A stretch of 45,440 nt of DNA, taken from IMG/VR virus record IMGVR_UViG_3300028610_001044; one strand, written 5' to 3'. Source of the stretch: a virus. Positions 9,532 to 13,923 of this stretch are shown here, in pieces (within the stretch, counting starts at the first letter, position 1; every line of letters begins with the position of its first letter). The notes below the pieces were generated by a model. The model was given only the letters and a program-made list of their open reading frames with translations, did no database searches and had not been told where the DNA came from. The position numbers and the translations under genes are program-made.

Positions 9532-9745
9532 GCGTACATTCCTTAAATGGTTAGGAGCCACTGGTGTTGTAGCCGCTACTACTGACCCTTTAGAGCTGTT
9601 GGCTGGTAGTCCTGAAACAGAAGACGTTTCAGAAGAACCCGCCTACTATGAACGCTTTGCGGGTATGCCTGTCACGGGCGATACGGGGGTGATGGGGATG
9701 ATAACTGTTCCCTACACTGTTGGCCGTAGCGAGTACAAAGCATGA
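9524..9745 (+). CDS. 73-aa protein with consensus twin-arginine (Tat) signal peptide
   Basis: MNRRTFLKWLGATGVVAATT matches S/T-R-R-x-F-L-K followed by an h-region. ATG 9524 lies 9 nt after GAGG and is coupled to both neighbours. Confidence 0.65.
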   Translation: MNRRTFLKWLGATGVVAATTDPLELLAGSPETEDVSEEPAYYERFAGMPVTGDTGVMGMITVPYTVGRSEYKA

Positions 9746-10209
9746 AGTTAGACGTAGGCTGTGGATTCAATAAAGAAGATGGATATATAGGAATAGATAT
9801 ACAAGACCGTGATGGTGTTGATATTGTCCATGATTTGGAGGTGTTCCCGTGGCCGATCAAGGATGAAGAGTGCGAACAAGTACACTGTAGTCATATAGCC
9901 GAACACATTAAACCGTGGCTACAGATGGATTTCTTTAATGAGATATGGCGCATCATGAAGCCAGGCGGGGTAATGCAACTCAACGTCCCTTACGCCGGTT
10001 GTCATGGCGATATACAAGACCCAACCCACTGTACGTCATGGAACGAACTAACCTGGTATTACTACGACCCAGAGTTTCCGTGGTATGAGATGTATCAACC
10101 TAAACCTTGGAAGTGTACGGAACAGACCACACTAAGAGCTATGGTGGCAGGACGACCAACAGGGGCCATACAAGCCCTTAATCATGTTATGACGAAGATA
10201 GCCCCATGA
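9742..10209 (+). CDS. Class I SAM-dependent methyltransferase
   Basis: Motif I LDVGCGFNKEDGYIGIDI and post-I DIVHDL, followed by ...MKPGGVM. ATGA coupling. Confidence 0.8.
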   Translation: MKLDVGCGFNKEDGYIGIDIQDRDGVDIVHDLEVFPWPIKDEECEQVHCSHIAEHIKPWLQMDFFNEIWRIMKPGGVMQLNVPYAGCHGDIQDPTHCTSWNELTWYYYDPEFPWYEMYQPKPWKCTEQTTLRAMVAGRPTGAIQALNHVMTKIAP

Positions 10210-10532
10210 AGTACGGCCTGAACGACATCTTTTCAATAAAAAAGTATAGCCTTGGTAAATACATAGTCGATGAACCAAAACGTACCAGTATCGTTTCATT
10301 TTGGTCTTCTGAGTTGATTGAAGATGATGGCAAAGAAGTACCGCCAATCAACCAAATATATTATCGAATAACAACACCCGAAGACGACCCGATACCCTCC
10401 AGGGAGTTGCTGGACAAACATATGGAGGAAATGTTGTCAGGCCCAGTTGAAATGCCAGAGGGTGTTCGTAAATTCTCGAACGCAAAGGATTTATTTAGAG
10501 GGGCTACAGATATAACAGAGCGCGATGTATGA
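10206..10532 (+). CDS. Hypothetical protein
   Basis: 108-aa ORF, ATGA-coupled on both sides. Confidence 0.7.
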   Translation: MKYGLNDIFSIKKYSLGKYIVDEPKRTSIVSFWSSELIEDDGKEVPPINQIYYRITTPEDDPIPSRELLDKHMEEMLSGPVEMPEGVRKFSNAKDLFRGATDITERDV

Positions 10533-11470
10533 GAATACTATTCTACGCCGATTGGCCTCTGAGTTGGCCGTATCTGACACCGATGTTTAATTATATGAAA
10601 GCACTAAACGAGAAATACGACCGACATTGGGAATTAGGGCGTTGGGATTCAACCAATATGGGGAGTAGTGGGGATTTAGATTATGACTACGTATTTGTAA
10701 CCGATGAAGAATCGAACTGTCCCGCCAAAGGCACATACGTCAACCTAACCCACGGTCTAGCCTCAAAAGGTCAATCATGGTCAACGAGCCGTAAAGATAC
10801 ATACCTGAACTACCCAGGCTTTATTGTATGTCCATCTGAATACTATAAGGACTTATTGACGAACATGGGGGTTAGTGAAGACAAACTGATTGTAGCGGGG
10901 TTGACCAAGTTCGATGGAATCAAGAAGATACCGCCACTAAGAGAGAAGCCAAGAGTATTATTTGCACCCACCTGGAACCCGGAACTCTCTGCTATATCGG
11001 TATTGAAAGATTCAATCTATGAGATAGAGGGTGTTAAGGTACACCTCCATGAACGGAGCCGGTCACACTCAGACGCACCACAATTATATCCAAGGTATTC
11101 GTCTGGCGATGTGACCCAAGCCATTTTAGATAGTGACATAGTAATTGCTGATTTCGGTTCTACTGTACTAGAGGCCATGGCTTTAGGTAAATATGTGATA
11201 CAGGTGGCAAACCCTGAACATGAAGAGTGGTACTTAAAGAAAAAGAGCATTCCGTCATTTGATTTGCCGAAACTACCCGAGTTTTTCTACACATACAAAT
11301 ACGCACGAAGAGCAGTAGAAATAGATGGGGTCAAGCACTCCATACAAGATTACATGAGGTATGACAAGGGATATGCAAGCTGCCCAGACTGGCTGGATAC
11401 CATAGTAGAAAACATCGGCAACGCCAGTGAGGTGATATATGAATCACTCTTTGGTGGAAAAGCTGATTAA
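10529..11470 (+). CDS. TagB/TagF-like (CDP-glycerol glycerophosphotransferase family) GT-B transferase
   Basis: VLFAPTWNPE resembles the (L)YAPT(W/F)R motif, followed by a VHLHE..SH block. C-terminal IADFGSTVLEAMALGKYVI resembles the GT-B donor-binding end. Confidence 0.6.
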   Translation: MRILFYADWPLSWPYLTPMFNYMKALNEKYDRHWELGRWDSTNMGSSGDLDYDYVFVTDEESNCPAKGTYVNLTHGLASKGQSWSTSRKDTYLNYPGFIVCPSEYYKDLLTNMGVSEDKLIVAGLTKFDGIKKIPPLREKPRVLFAPTWNPELSAISVLKDSIYEIEGVKVHLHERSRSHSDAPQLYPRYSSGDVTQAILDSDIVIADFGSTVLEAMALGKYVIQVANPEHEEWYLKKKSIPSFDLPKLPEFFYTYKYARRAVEIDGVKHSIQDYMRYDKGYASCPDWLDTIVENIGNASEVIYESLFGGKAD

Positions 11471-11987
11471 AGATTGTGTCATCAAACAAACCCGCTGGGA
11501 TAATGCCGTACCGCTGCCGCAGAAGGTAGAAGCTAAGAGATACGGATACGAACAAATATCAGAATATGTCACTAGAGGTCGGATATTAGACTTAGGTGGA
11601 GAGGAGTTCTACCACGATCTTTACAAAGACTACGACCTGGTAACGATTAACTTACCCCACGACATGCACCAGGGGATAGTACAAGACGGTATGGGGTTTG
11701 ACGCAGTATTAGCCATGCACGTACTGGAACACTCACCCTTTCCGCTTTATGTGTTGGCGCTCATCAACGATGCACTAAACAGCTATGGTTATCTCTATGT
11801 AGCGCTCCCAACCCACACAACAGATGCCTTTTGTGAGATAGAAGAACACTTTACGATTATGCCGACAAAGATGTGGGAGAGACTGTTTAAAGAGGCAGGG
11901 TTTACGATAATCAGCCACGACATAGGAAAGTTTGGGAATACTCCCGATTGGGTAGAGGAGCGTTTCTTGTGTCGAAAGTCTACATAG
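11439..11987 (+). CDS. SAM-dependent methyltransferase (Methyltransf_11-like)
   Basis: ILDLGGEE (motif I) ... FDAVLAMHVLEHSPFP ... GYLYVALP. GAGGTGATAT precedes the ATG. Confidence 0.65.
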   Translation: MNHSLVEKLIKDCVIKQTRWDNAVPLPQKVEAKRYGYEQISEYVTRGRILDLGGEEFYHDLYKDYDLVTINLPHDMHQGIVQDGMGFDAVLAMHVLEHSPFPLYVLALINDALNSYGYLYVALPTHTTDAFCEIEEHFTIMPTKMWERLFKEAGFTIISHDIGKFGNTPDWVEERFLCRKST

Positions 11988-12385
11988 CTGGGGTGTGGGA
12001 TACGTTTCACATCGGACACCTCAATATCCTCCAAAGAGCGAAAGCCTTGGGGGATTTTCTAGTTGTAGGGGTCTTAACCGATGAGGCTACCGAGAGATAC
12101 AAACCAAGAACGATAATCAGACAGAAAGATCGCCTAGAGATAGTCAAGGCCATCAAGTACGTTGATATGGCGTTCTTCCAGAAAGACACAGACCCAACGA
12201 AGAACGGAGAGCTACAGTACTTCAATCCCGACATTCTGATTCATGCAGACGATTGGGATTATGTCCCTGGACAAGATTGGATGCTAGAAAAACAGAAGAC
12301 CGTCATGCTGTTGCCATACACGCCAAATATATCCAGCACCCTCATAAGAGAGAGGATTATAGATTGCCAGCCAAAGGAGCACTGA
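11969..12385 (+). CDS. Cytidylyltransferase-family protein, glycerol-3-phosphate cytidylyltransferase (TagD)-like
   Basis: [37 protein letters not shown] matches the GxFDxxHxGH plus LVV..xxD pattern. GTG 11969 lies 8 nt after GAGGAG; TTG 11948 was rejected. Confidence 0.8.
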   Translation: [138 protein letters not shown]

Positions 12386-12858: not shown

Positions 12859-12873
12859 GGAAACGGAGTCACG

Positions 12874-13260
12874 ATGACGAAGAAGGATGATTTGATATGG
12901 AGACTAAAAGAGCCTCCGACAGCCGATGAGGTCGCCCGCCTTGTCGGACAAAGTATTATTACGGAGAAGCAGGCGTTTGGCTTACTTTTCCGAGAGGGCA
13001 ACATTAACACCAACGAGTTAAAAGACATTAAGAAAGAAGTCGAACTACTCAGAGCGTTGGTGTTGGAGCTTTCTAACAAAGAGCCCACAACGATATTCCC
13101 GATTGTCGAGCGATACCGAGATAGGTATCCGTGGTATCAGCCTTACCAGGTATGGTGTTCTAGTACGGCATCAACCAATGCAGATATTACACTTACAGGA
13201 ACCAGCTTAGACTCGACTAGCGCAACACTGACAGTCCAAGACACTAATATTGTCGAATAA
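12874..13260 (+). CDS. Hypothetical protein enclosed by the inverted repeat
   Basis: ATG 12874 lies 6 nt after GGAG. 128 aa, with a Ser/Thr-rich C-terminus. Confidence 0.6.
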   Translation: MTKKDDLIWRLKEPPTADEVARLVGQSIITEKQAFGLLFREGNINTNELKDIKKEVELLRALVLELSNKEPTTIFPIVERYRDRYPWYQPYQVWCSSTASTNADITLTGTSLDSTSATLTVQDTNIVE

Positions 13261-13263
13261 CTA

Positions 13264-13283
13264 ACTTCTTCGGGCCACAGAAA
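13264..13283. repeat. Right arm of 20-bp imperfect inverted repeat
   Basis: Reverse complement of the left arm. It begins 4 nt after the stop at 13260. Confidence 0.85.
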
Positions 13284-13314
13284 TTTGTTAAGTCCACAGA
13301 GATCAGGAGGCTTT

Positions 13315-13923
13315 GTGCAGAGCATTAAGGTGTTAACAGACAAACACGCAGGAGAAACAGGATATGTGGTGGGTAAAGGCCCATCACTACTCAAACTAAG
13401 CGCAGACCACTTTGGAGAGGGGCCGATAATAGCGATAAACCAGGCTGTTCAACACGTAGAGGCTCTAGGACTAGAGAACACAGTCTATGCGTTACAGAAG
13501 AACCCTTGTGATGAAGTGATAGCAGGAGAAGACATTTGTGGTGGGTGTGAGAGCGGCCCTCCGGGGTATCCAGAACCAGAAAAAGCAGCGTTGTTGTTGT
13601 CGTACCCAGAGACACACAACTGTTACAGCCATTATCCTGACAGATTTATGTTTATCGACACACATGACTTAGGGTTCAAAGACCGAATGATGCCGTCACT
13701 CCCAAACGCCTGTAGGTTATTAGAGTTGATGGGGATAAAAGATATTAAGATACTTTGTTGTGATGCTATAGACGGAGAGGGGTTATCGGTAGACCACACA
13801 GGAGAGCCGTATTACGCCTCTCACTTCAAGTCTCCGACCCATGCCATAGCCTACTACCGTAGCAGCGCTCAGAGGGCGCAGGAGAGCATGTCCGTACCGT
13901 TTAAGTGGGTGAGTGTATGTTAG
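13315..13923 (+). CDS. Hypothetical protein with GxGPSL motif (DUF115/MptE-like or sialyltransferase-like fold suspected)
   Basis: YVVGKGPSLL...IIAINQA resembles the GNGPSL nucleotide-sugar transferase motif. GTG 13315 follows AGGAGG. The functional call is tentative. Confidence 0.55.
   Translation: MQSIKVLTDKHAGETGYVVGKGPSLLKLSADHFGEGPIIAINQAVQHVEALGLENTVYALQKNPCDEVIAGEDICGGCESGPPGYPEPEKAALLLSYPETHNCYSHYPDRFMFIDTHDLGFKDRMMPSLPNACRLLELMGIKDIKILCCDAIDGEGLSVDHTGEPYYASHFKSPTHAIAYYRSSAQRAQESMSVPFKWVSVC

Follow-up and report, generated by a model that had tools for sequence, protein, structure and literature searches.

Which molecule would a bacteriophage modify with enzymes of the kind that build teichoic acids, and by what chemistry? 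The question is raised by IMG/VR virus record IMGVR_UViG_3300028610_001044, analyzed here over its full length of 45,440 nucleotides (the window), in which a first-pass annotation had placed a cytidine diphosphate (CDP)-alditol or teichoic-acid-type modification operon at 9742-13923, directly upstream of the packaging genes. That placement is borne out, the large terminase gene (TerL, 556 aa, with a Pfam GpA_ATPase match) lying at 14541-16211, and re-reading of the gene junctions located all of the annotated open reading frames (ORFs), motifs and start/stop overlaps where they had been described. The locus holds a conserved module of five enzyme genes, encoding a methyltransferase, a minimal TagF-like protein, a second methyltransferase, a nucleotidylyltransferase with an HxGH signature and a protein resembling DUF115 proteins and sialyltransferases (Table 1), and this module is built into the late packaging/head operon. 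We tentatively propose, as possible rather than probable, that these genes specify a late cytoplasmic pathway adding methyl-capped, polyol-phosphate-containing glycans to virion proteins.

A conserved enzyme module among packaging and head genes

The window is the complete genome, of about 45.3 kb and circular or terminally redundant, of an uncultured phage, since it carries an exact 144-bp terminal direct repeat (bases 1-144 equal 45297-45440) and a circularly permuted version of it, 45,437 bp long, was assembled independently. The module genes are tightly chained. Four-nucleotide (nt) overlaps of the ATGA type, re-read base by base, occur at 9742/9745, 10206/10209 and 10529/10532, and longer ones at 11439/11470 (32 nt), 11969/11987 (19 nt) and 12364/12385 (22 nt, with a TTG start). 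Further downstream, a gene for a 73-aa protein overlaps by 19 nt the stop of the DUF115/sialyltransferase-like gene (GKGPSL, after its motif), and the junctions of the packaging genes consist of a 4-nt overlap and a 1-nt gap; the sole real intergenic gaps in the chain, of 45 and 54 nt, flank the ORF at 12874-13260. The coupled unit described in the first-pass annotation, from 9524 to 12828, therefore retains its overlaps, but the chain is longer than stated, beginning at 8202, taking in TerL and the portal gene and ending at 18229, and the endonuclease VII gene at the end of that unit is an insertion. A single strong sigma-70-like site (11/12 matches) lies at 8001-8028, upstream of the chain start, and no plus-strand terminator-like site was found between 8202 and 18229. 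Evidence that the chain forms one transcription unit is nevertheless weak, because promoter-like sites are not enriched relative to shuffled sequences. The module has no terminator and no strong internal promoter of its own and shares its GC content (0.44-0.46) with the remaining genome; in these respects it is not moron-like.

The search for the same neighborhood in related phages recovered both the order of the module and similar gene sets elsewhere. Three related contigs (L004, L005 and L006) share the order methyltransferase, 108-aa ORF (a variable element), TagF-like gene, methyltransferase, cytidylyltransferase, GKGPSL gene, 73-aa gene, gene for a basic 138-aa protein and TerL. The first methyltransferase (MT155) is 71-78% identical in these contigs and occupies the same position, and the 73-aa protein, with its predicted hydrophobic helix, is conserved 3' of the GKGPSL gene at 49-74% identity. 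In four other phage lineages, TagF-like and cytidylyltransferase genes occur together with methyltransferases, each time beside or within packaging, head or head-tail genes. The L003/L007 lineage presents genes for a GT4-like glycosyltransferase, a methyltransferase, a TagF-like protein, a methyltransferase and a cytidylyltransferase, followed by those for a 199-aa protein, a large terminase, a connector-like and a capsid-like protein. L027 reads TerL, portal, GT2 glycosyltransferase, radical-SAM/SPASM enzyme, methyltransferase, TagF-like protein, cytidylyltransferase, GT4, prohead protease and major capsid protein, whereas in L029 a glycosyltransferase, the TagF-like protein, a methyltransferase and the cytidylyltransferase precede head-tail and tail genes. 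L027 is Logan contig SRR27686863_4890, an unrelated 53-kb phage with the cluster at 6830-11397. Overall, a TagF-like gene followed by a cytidylyltransferase gene was observed in the window lineage, L003/L007, L027, L029, L064, L068, L091 and a cellular 337-kb contig (L001), where the order is GT1, TagF-like, cytidylyltransferase, GT1. The pairing of transferase and activating enzyme reaches beyond the close family, as indicated by low-GC metagenome contigs (L103, L104 and L106-L108) in which a distant TagF-like gene immediately precedes an ORF with a cytidylyltransferase domain; this ORF measures about 430 aa in L106-L108 and runs off the contig in L103 and L104.

Both proteins that had been described as class-I S-adenosylmethionine (SAM) methyltransferases score above their Pfam cut-offs. 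MT155 carries a DVGCG motif and also matches PHROG methyltransferase families, and MT182 carries LDLGG; PDB searches with either returned no informative relative. In L003/L007 and L027, too, the TagF-like gene has a Methyltransf_11 gene upstream of it. Homologs of MT182 lie directly 3' of the TagF-like gene in L004-L006, L064 and L068, and a Methyltransf_24 gene takes that position in L003/L007 and L029.

The TagF-like family is common on viral and metagenomic contigs, yet a pattern-based scan of 185,579 reference species genomes returned one marginal match, and tblastn with the 313-aa protein as query returned nothing from 50,697 deposited phage records. Literature searches turned up neither a described phage module of TagF-like protein and cytidylyltransferase nor any account of virions bearing polyol-phosphate; cyanomyophages have annotated TagD-like genes and phage SP-15 a TagF-like one, none of them characterized. 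The statement that no characterized phage equivalent could be named accordingly holds for the literature and for the deposited phage records. The enzymology itself is known; what is new is its context and the minimal, virus-borne clade. The analysis thus defines a compact TagF-like family of about 290-320 aa, found for the most part on phage-like contigs and hardly ever in reference genomes, with reproducible gene partners, namely cytidylyltransferases, SAM methyltransferases and GT2/GT4 glycosyltransferases.

Table 1. Features of the module and of its surroundings in the window.
Feature	Coordinates	Strand	Evidence
Tat-signal protein, 73 aa	9524..9745	+	Pfam TAT_signal 27.8 bits vs cut-off 22.7
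Class-I SAM methyltransferase MT155, 155 aa, motif I N-terminal	9742..10209	+	Methyltransf_11 23.3 bits vs cut-off 21.2
108-aa protein, variable accessory	10206..10532	+	no family match
Minimal TagB/F-like (Glyphos_transf-type) GT-B phosphotransferase, 313 aa, core enzyme	10529..11470	+	fold and profile
Class-I SAM methyltransferase MT182, 182 aa	11439..11987	+	Methyltransf_23 32.6 bits vs cut-off 27
HxGH nucleotidylyltransferase, cytidylyltransferase family, 138 aa (CT138)	11969..12385	+	CTP_transf_like 72.6 bits, E 4.7e-20
Inserted cassette: endonuclease VII (~12364-12828) and 128-aa Ser/Thr-rich ORF (12874-13260)	12364..13260	+	Endonuclease_7 E 1.2e-23
GKGPSL protein, 202 aa, candidate second transferase	13315..13923	+	weak MptE-like/DUF115, sialyltransferase-like fold
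73-aa protein, one predicted N-terminal hydrophobic helix	13905..14126	+	helix read from sequence
Packaging genes: basic 138-aa protein (small-terminase position), then large terminase	14123..16211	+	GpA_ATPase on 556-aa protein
Two paralogous Ser/Thr-rich virion proteins, 152 and 214 aa	21053..22165	+	shared C-terminal ~110 aa
Protein with two GT-A (GT2) domains, 460 aa	22239..23621	+	Glycos_transf_2 91.2 bits, two matched stretches

The TagF-like transferase and its nucleotidylyltransferase partner

Searched alone, the 313-aa protein finds no significant match in Pfam, PHROGs or PDB sequences, and PHROGs contain no family for it. Its 22 close homologs include nine with weak Glyphos_transf matches (best E 1.2e-3), and PDB searches with the single sequence or the close-family profile were without significant result, whereas a profile widened with intermediate relatives reaches TarL and TagF. 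A family profile retrieves 596 representative proteins, and Glyphos_transf is matched by 73/79 distant relatives (10/10 at 33.8-199 bits and 63/69 at E <= 1e-5), as opposed to 7/69 for Epimerase_2; the nearest relatives outside the family are TagF-like multi-domain proteins (E 1e-50 to 1e-33). An AlphaFold2 (AF2) model built from the 22-member family (mean predicted local distance difference test score, pLDDT, 89.6) presents a bare two-Rossmann GT-B fold. The first 15 Foldseek matches of this model in the PDB are TarL (with CDP-ribitol; 8e-10), TagF (2e-9) and Cps3D, with E-values of 8e-10 to 5e-8 and template modelling (TM) scores of 0.55-0.65, and UDP-GlcNAc 2-epimerases form a second tier starting at E 6e-8. 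A library of viral structures returned only generic GT-B matches, weaker than those in the PDB. Profile and structure searches of this kind thus confirm the earlier assignment of the protein to the TagB/F group of GT-B enzymes, and it appears from sequence and model to be a divergent, minimal TagB/F-type enzyme.

The widened profile aligns the C-terminal domain to that of TagF and TarL, with which the protein has in common the (Y/F)APTxN, K-x-H, D-x-x-S-x-x-x-E and C-terminal G-x-A-S motifs. FAPTWN aligns with YAPTWR of TagF/TarL, the invariant H174 with H584 of TagF (RMHYL) and H433 of TarL (KMHPF), D208-x-x-S211-x-x-x-E215 with DYSSxxFD/EY, and the C-terminal NIGNASE with GKASQ/GRSSER. Both histidines of the TagF family are essential by mutagenesis. 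In the N-terminal half, H75 and K80 (HGLASK) are invariant or nearly so in 39 sequences, and H75 is collinear with TagF H444. Mapping H75 onto H444 through the N-terminal halves was tried and abandoned, the search having returned epimerases instead. TagF-like polymerases (TagF, TarL, TarK) have an extra N-terminal domain ahead of the GT-B core, which the 313-aa protein lacks. Polymerization of alditol-phosphate, one of the activities suggested for the operon in the first-pass annotation, is consequently unlikely, as only the bare GT-B core is present.

The Gram-positive wall-teichoic-acid enzymes TagD, TagB, TagF and TarL likewise combine an HxGH cytidylyltransferase with a GT-B phosphotransferase. 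The 313-aa protein differs from TagF/TarL in its size (TagF/TarL have 380-720 aa), in lacking recognizable membrane-binding insertions as well as the N-terminal polymerase domain, and in being acidic, the median isoelectric point (pI) of its family being 5.7. In contrast to the Tag enzymes, the phage genes lie within head and packaging genes and are accompanied by methyltransferases, and their cytidylyltransferase is not a TagD equivalog. With this protein, an enzyme family that serves as a drug target in Gram-positive pathogens gains a model that is minimal and looks soluble.

The nucleotidylyltransferase CT138, which presumably makes the donor, aligns over residues 1-130 to residues 1-126 of Bacillus subtilis TagD at full length (69 bits), with HIGH in place of HWGH and a ten-residue segment in place of LPRTEGISTT. 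The best PDB match is human ethanolamine-phosphate cytidylyltransferase (ECT, 86 bits), followed at lower scores by the cytidylyltransferase domain of Fom1 (56 bits) and by HldC (5x9q, 41.5 bits), so that solved structures favor the CDP branch, with ECT and TagD ahead of HldC. Homologs of CT138 are numerous and bear generic or automatic names only. The cytidylyltransferases of the window, L004/L005, L027 and L029 constitute a separate clade, about 36% identical to TagD, Fom1, HldC and ECT alike, whereas genuine TagD shares 56-58% identity with the partners in L001 and L003, which reach 162 and 148 bits, respectively, against the TagD model's cut-off of 165.

Several results count against reading this pair of enzymes as a CDP-polyol system. 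The 313-aa protein itself has no Glyphos_transf match at E <= 0.1 (the Pfam gathering thresholds are 22.1 bits for Glyphos_transf, PF04464, and 30.6 bits for Epimerase_2, PF02350). No alignment to TagF/TarL (H444; W299-H300...K306) covered the H75 segment, and it is collinearity that suggests H75 as the counterpart of the catalytic base H444. The N-terminal half is closer to the N-domains of epimerases than to TagF (4neq, E 4e-5). By its sequence scores, CT138 does not appear to be a TagD equivalog: in NCBIfam it attains 74.8 bits on RfaE domain II (TIGR02199, cut-off 181.5) and 72.4 bits on TagD (TIGR01518, cut-off 165.4), so that it scores as high or higher on the heptose-1-phosphate adenylyltransferase model, and its best PHROG is a family of that name. 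Its orthologs in L004, L005, L027 and L029 lean the same way by 8 to 40 bits (84-108 on RfaE-II versus 66-76 on TagD). Because this clade is not a TagD equivalog and its RfaE-II scores are equal or higher, the donor may not be a CDP-polyol. The TagD-like character ascribed earlier to CT138 thus stands for the HxGH signature and the full-length alignment and falls short at the equivalog level; similarly, the proposed CDP-alditol donor is supported insofar as an activating enzyme and a transferase are both encoded, while the TagD and RfaE-II scores are nearly equal. Of the two proteins on which the first-pass annotation had staked its case, the 313-aa protein falls inside TagB/F, and CT138 is not clearly placed between the RfaE-II model and the CDP-branch structures.

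These results bear on a doubtful alternative, which concerns the chemistry rather than the acceptor and overlaps the acceptor hypotheses discussed below without excluding them. CT138 would activate a sugar-1-phosphate (e.g. heptose), phosphoethanolamine or a phosphonate, and the 313-aa protein would be a glycosyltransferase, another phosphotransferase or an epimerase-like enzyme, making the term "teichoic-acid-type" a misnomer. The equidistance of the CT138 clade from TagD, Fom1, HldC and ECT agrees with this, as do its C-terminal PYTPxISST motif, which matches the phosphonate cytidylyltransferase Fom1, the fusion of such a domain to phosphoenolpyruvate (PEP) mutase in viral contig L021, the ranking of ECT as best PDB match and the epimerase-like N-terminal half of the 313-aa protein, with weak Epimerase_2 matches in 19/22 family members. 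Those matches are all below threshold, however (15.5 bits for the 313-aa protein itself), and the acidic catalytic positions of the epimerases (H-V-E-A-G, H-G-G-E) either lie within a gap or have HGLA in their place. The UDP-GlcNAc 2-epimerases therefore share with the protein a GT-B fold and an alignment over the N-terminal half, and differ in their catalytic Glu segment and in lacking the TagF C-terminal motifs; an assignment as UDP-GlcNAc 2-epimerase was rejected on these grounds. The conserved C-domain motifs, which include the second catalytic histidine, the preponderance of Glyphos_transf over Epimerase_2 among distant relatives (63 versus 7), the TagD-like partners in two lineages (L001 and L003) and the absence from the genome of recognized precursor genes (PEP mutase, heptose kinase/isomerase) likewise speak against different chemistry. 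A likeness to the Campylobacter O-methyl-phosphoramidate (MeOPN) pathway was set aside, since a published account has separate genes for the MeOPN transferase and the TagF-like enzyme.

Contig L021 (IMGVR_UViG_3300017765_003651) carries at 7668-16260 a large glycan cluster with a TagF-like gene (Glyphos_transf 3e-11) and a DUF115/MptE-like gene, together with NeuA- and NeuB-like genes and an aminotransferase gene recognized by sequence motifs. The cytidylyltransferase domain fused to PEP mutase there is 65% identical to the Fom1 domain, and the cluster suggests nonulosonic-acid and phosphonate chemistry in a phage.

Candidate acceptors of the modification

For the proposed virion pathway, the sequence of events would be as follows. 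Late in infection, the nucleotidylyltransferase would activate a common phosphorylated metabolite, in the most economical case sn-glycerol-3-phosphate, which with CTP would yield CDP-glycerol; this choice is economical because no precursor pathway is encoded, the partner is TagF-like and near-TagD enzymes occupy the same place in two lineages. The TagF-like enzyme would then use its two conserved histidines to transfer a single polyol-phosphate, rather than a polymer, to a hydroxyl of a short glycan made by the GT2 protein and possibly the GKGPSL protein (by GT4 enzymes in other lineages), and the two SAM methyltransferases would O-methylate or cap the product. The outcome would be a particle bearing an anionic, methyl-capped, teichoic-acid-like glycan.

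The inclusion of the GT2 protein moves the limits of the module, previously set at 9742-13923, to the gene at 22239-23621, which is assigned to it because GKGPSL-family genes repeatedly adjoin relatives of this 460-aa protein (GT2_460). Among the 24 viral loci with a GKGPSL-family gene, six have it next to a GT2_460-like gene and one next to a TagF-like gene. The C-terminal half of GT2_460 also matches Glyco_tranf_2_3 and phrog_1574, and its gene is embedded among structural genes, a position kept in L028 (76% identity). Just upstream lie the genes of the paired Ser/Thr-rich proteins (serine plus threonine 23% and 21%), the first of which matches phrog_29386 "virion structural protein" (8e-6), and the order of this pair and GT2 recurs in L028. 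We infer that these proteins are candidate acceptors. As for the GKGPSL protein, its AF2 model (pLDDT 88.3) has weak Foldseek matches, none at E <= 0.001, to CstII (E 0.011), ST3Gal/ST6Gal (TM 0.43-0.47) and also thiamin pyrophosphokinase, and its MptE-like score (PF01973) is 11.4 bits against a threshold of 34.6, with sub-threshold matches in 4/7 relatives (best E 3.7e-4). The likeness to DUF115/Maf or GT42 transferases noted at first reading is hence retained as a weak similarity, with Pfam scores below threshold and fold matches at E 0.011 or above. A cellular relative lies beside a CMP-sugar synthetase gene. In six viral loci (L045-L047, L052, L057 and L058) the GKGPSL domain makes up the C-terminal half of a longer protein (about 430 aa), and relative P0030 has an N-terminal extension resembling the end of a GT-A domain; such natural fusions could reveal the partner activity.

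A cytoplasmic acceptor, most likely virion proteins, is favored since the phage encodes no recognized flippase, exporter or lipid-priming enzyme, the genes appear to be co-transcribed with head genes and the module is not moron-like. The link to head assembly recurs in independent lineages, comprising the window, L007 (upstream of the large terminase), L027 (between portal and prohead protease) and L029. Radical-SAM/SPASM enzymes usually act on peptides, and the one encoded in L027 is a weak hint of a protein acceptor. Mycobacteriophages reportedly glycosylate capsid and tail proteins with phage-encoded glycosyltransferases, some of them also having O-methyltransferases, and are said to do so in the cytoplasm with genes in or near structural modules, although we know of no TagF-like enzyme or nucleotide-activating enzyme in mycobacteriophage virion glycosylation. 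In the present phage, it is gene position that points to the virion. A comparison of the GT4-like neighbor with glycosylation genes of cultured actinophages retrieved only distant glycosyltransferases of Arthrobacter phages and of rV5-like phages.

Against a protein acceptor it must be held that gene position is circumstantial, and that conversion genes (morons) also insert into late operons. Moreover, the acceptors of characterized TagF-like enzymes are in every case lipid-linked or polysaccharide, never protein. In an actinophage-like group (WhiB genes, GC 0.53-0.57), TagF-like genes occur with GT4-like genes and often a methyltransferase gene, without a cytidylyltransferase, and the TagF-like/GT4 pair follows the lysis cassette instead of lying among head genes. 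The GT4-like neighbor as such, seen in this group and its relatives in 27/37 close-family metagenome loci, counts in favor of the proposed glycan pathway.

The same facts lend some weight to modification of the host envelope, an outcome we consider rather unlikely, in which polyol-phosphate or methylated sugars would be placed on lipid-linked glycans of the host at the inner membrane face, whether O-antigen, capsule, teichoic acid or membrane glycolipid, and the host would export the product, masking receptors to the benefit of superinfection exclusion, of progeny spared adsorption to debris, or of serotype conversion. Besides the acceptor range of characterized enzymes, the actinophage-like pair stands in a typical position for accessory genes, the prophage-encoded wall-teichoic-acid modification enzyme TarP provides a precedent, a small membrane protein is conserved 3' of the module, and an Arm-DNA-binding protein encoded elsewhere in the genome hints at temperate ancestry. 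The cellular relatives point in the same direction: L001 is a GT1/TagF-like/TagD-like/GT1 island, and the closest are giant multi-domain polysaccharide synthases with GT2, GT4, TagF-like, methyltransferase and tetratricopeptide repeat (TPR) domains. The phage set resembles these giant uncharacterized proteins and capsule polymerases in its repertoire of TagF-like, GT2, GT4 and SAM methyltransferase activities, and Cps3D of Actinobacillus pleuropneumoniae (PDB 8qoy) is among the top structural and profile matches of the 313-aa protein. Those proteins, however, are single large polypeptides, some with TPR scaffolds (e.g. P0063), that make exported polymers, whereas the phage encodes separate small proteins and no export machinery. 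Against envelope modification, genes overlap-chained into terminase and portal, with neither a terminator of their own nor a compositional signature, would be silent in a lysogen; in L027 the module sits between the portal and prohead protease genes; no tyrosine-recombinase/integrase catalytic domain or repressor was recognized in the genome; and the minimal acidic enzyme, without an extra domain, is much smaller than the membrane-bound TagF/TarL.

The position just before the terminase would also suit a step preceding packaging, as in DNA hypermodification, where an activated sugar or polyol-phosphate from the nucleotidylyltransferase would be put on phage DNA by the GT-B enzyme, possibly with GT2 and the GKGPSL protein, for protection from restriction or CRISPR. 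A published set of 5-hydroxymethylcytosine (5hmC) glycan clusters (Burke et al., 10.1101/2023.12.21.572611) resembles the module in combining GT-A/GT-B and sugar-activating enzymes, is also found near structural genes and includes one cluster (contig 53) with a "CTP transf." enzyme and a GT-B enzyme, involving heptose on 5hmC; the lean of CT138 and its orthologs towards the RfaE-II model and the PHROG family of that name fits this comparison. Phage SP-15 has its annotated TagF-like gene in a presumed DNA-modification cluster, and a C5 DNA methylase gene lies a few genes upstream in L003/L007. This destination is nonetheless improbable. The published clusters are defined by a C5-methyltransferase together with a 5mYOX or ThyS-type enzyme; none was found in this genome, where Pfam searches of called genes and extra ORFs detected no C5-methyltransferase, TET/5mYOX, thymidylate-synthase-like hydroxymethylase or phage DNA polymerase (the sole stretch without Pfam coverage is 3505-5035, where four ORFs encode 101-111 aa each). 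The GT-B enzymes of the published clusters look like T4 beta-glucosyltransferase and not like TagF, whereas the fold of the 313-aa protein matches TagF/TarL and epimerases and T4 beta-glucosyltransferase is outside its top 50 PDB matches; the net negative charge of the TagF-like family points the same way. The 343-aa gene beside the module in L003, considered as a TET/5mYOX dioxygenase, was rejected as such and encodes a GT4-like glycosyltransferase.

Returning to the virion pathway, its most specific form is that a largely virus-borne, minimal TagF-like clade with a dedicated nucleotidylyltransferase puts phosphodiester-linked, O-methyl-capped polyol-phosphate on glycans of capsid or decoration proteins, a claim that is unlikely as it stands. 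If true, it would give the first case of a virus making a phosphodiester-type glycoconjugate on its own virion, as well as the first TagF chemistry directed at proteins. The reach of TagF-type phosphotransfer would then go beyond lipid-linked polymers and include acceptors that are protein-linked or, failing that, soluble. Anionic, teichoic-acid-like particles would in turn affect adsorption, aggregation, immune recognition of therapeutic phages and environmental survival. Whichever the acceptor, the locus provides phage glycobiology with a concrete, testable gene set.

Accessory genes, the inserted cassette and other parts of the genome

The gene upstream of the module encodes a protein with a twin-arginine translocation (Tat) signal, which the first-pass annotation had listed among the candidate acceptors. 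It is absent from L004, and only its first 35 aa, the signal part, are conserved in L005/L006; it is hence a variable accessory gene outside the conserved core, unlikely to be the acceptor, and was rejected as a conserved one. The 108-aa protein, without a match in Pfam, PHROGs or NCBIfam, is 52% identical in L005/L006 and absent from L004. The cytidylyltransferase and GKGPSL genes are adjacent in L004, L005 and L006, and the window has about 930 nt of extra DNA between them. The endonuclease VII gene and the ORF at 12874-13260, which all three contigs lack, therefore constitute a 930-nt insertion outside the module, and a role of endonuclease VII in the function of the operon was rejected for the same reason. 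The cassette looks like a homing-type mobile element; the only match in a blastn search of 9500-14200 against the 50,697 phage records was 88 nt of an endonuclease VII gene from an Enterobacter phage. On the other side of the module, we infer from position that the basic 138-aa protein ahead of TerL (pI 9.8) is the small terminase.

Elsewhere in the genome, a leftward gene block contains a full-length RtcB RNA ligase gene at 40113-41258 on the minus strand (phrog_1075, E 1.7e-124), whose product may repair tRNAs cut by host anticodon nucleases; no tRNA genes or Rfam families were found in the genome. A 311-aa protein at 42604-43539 has an integrase-type Arm-DNA-binding domain (31 bits, cut-off 27). 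The lytic appearance attributed to this phage is unproven, an integrase catalytic domain not having been found and the Arm-DNA-binding domain being the only element of that kind. The major head protein gene looks split, with 19065-19553 corresponding to positions 13-153 of phrog_9953 and 20554-21051 to positions 163-326, and a 295-aa HNH-type protein (19582-20469) is encoded between the two halves. The only matches to group I introns were weak and collinear (E 0.1 and 0.16); the region at 19065-21051 may contain an intron or an intein-like element, or the capsid gene may be truly split.

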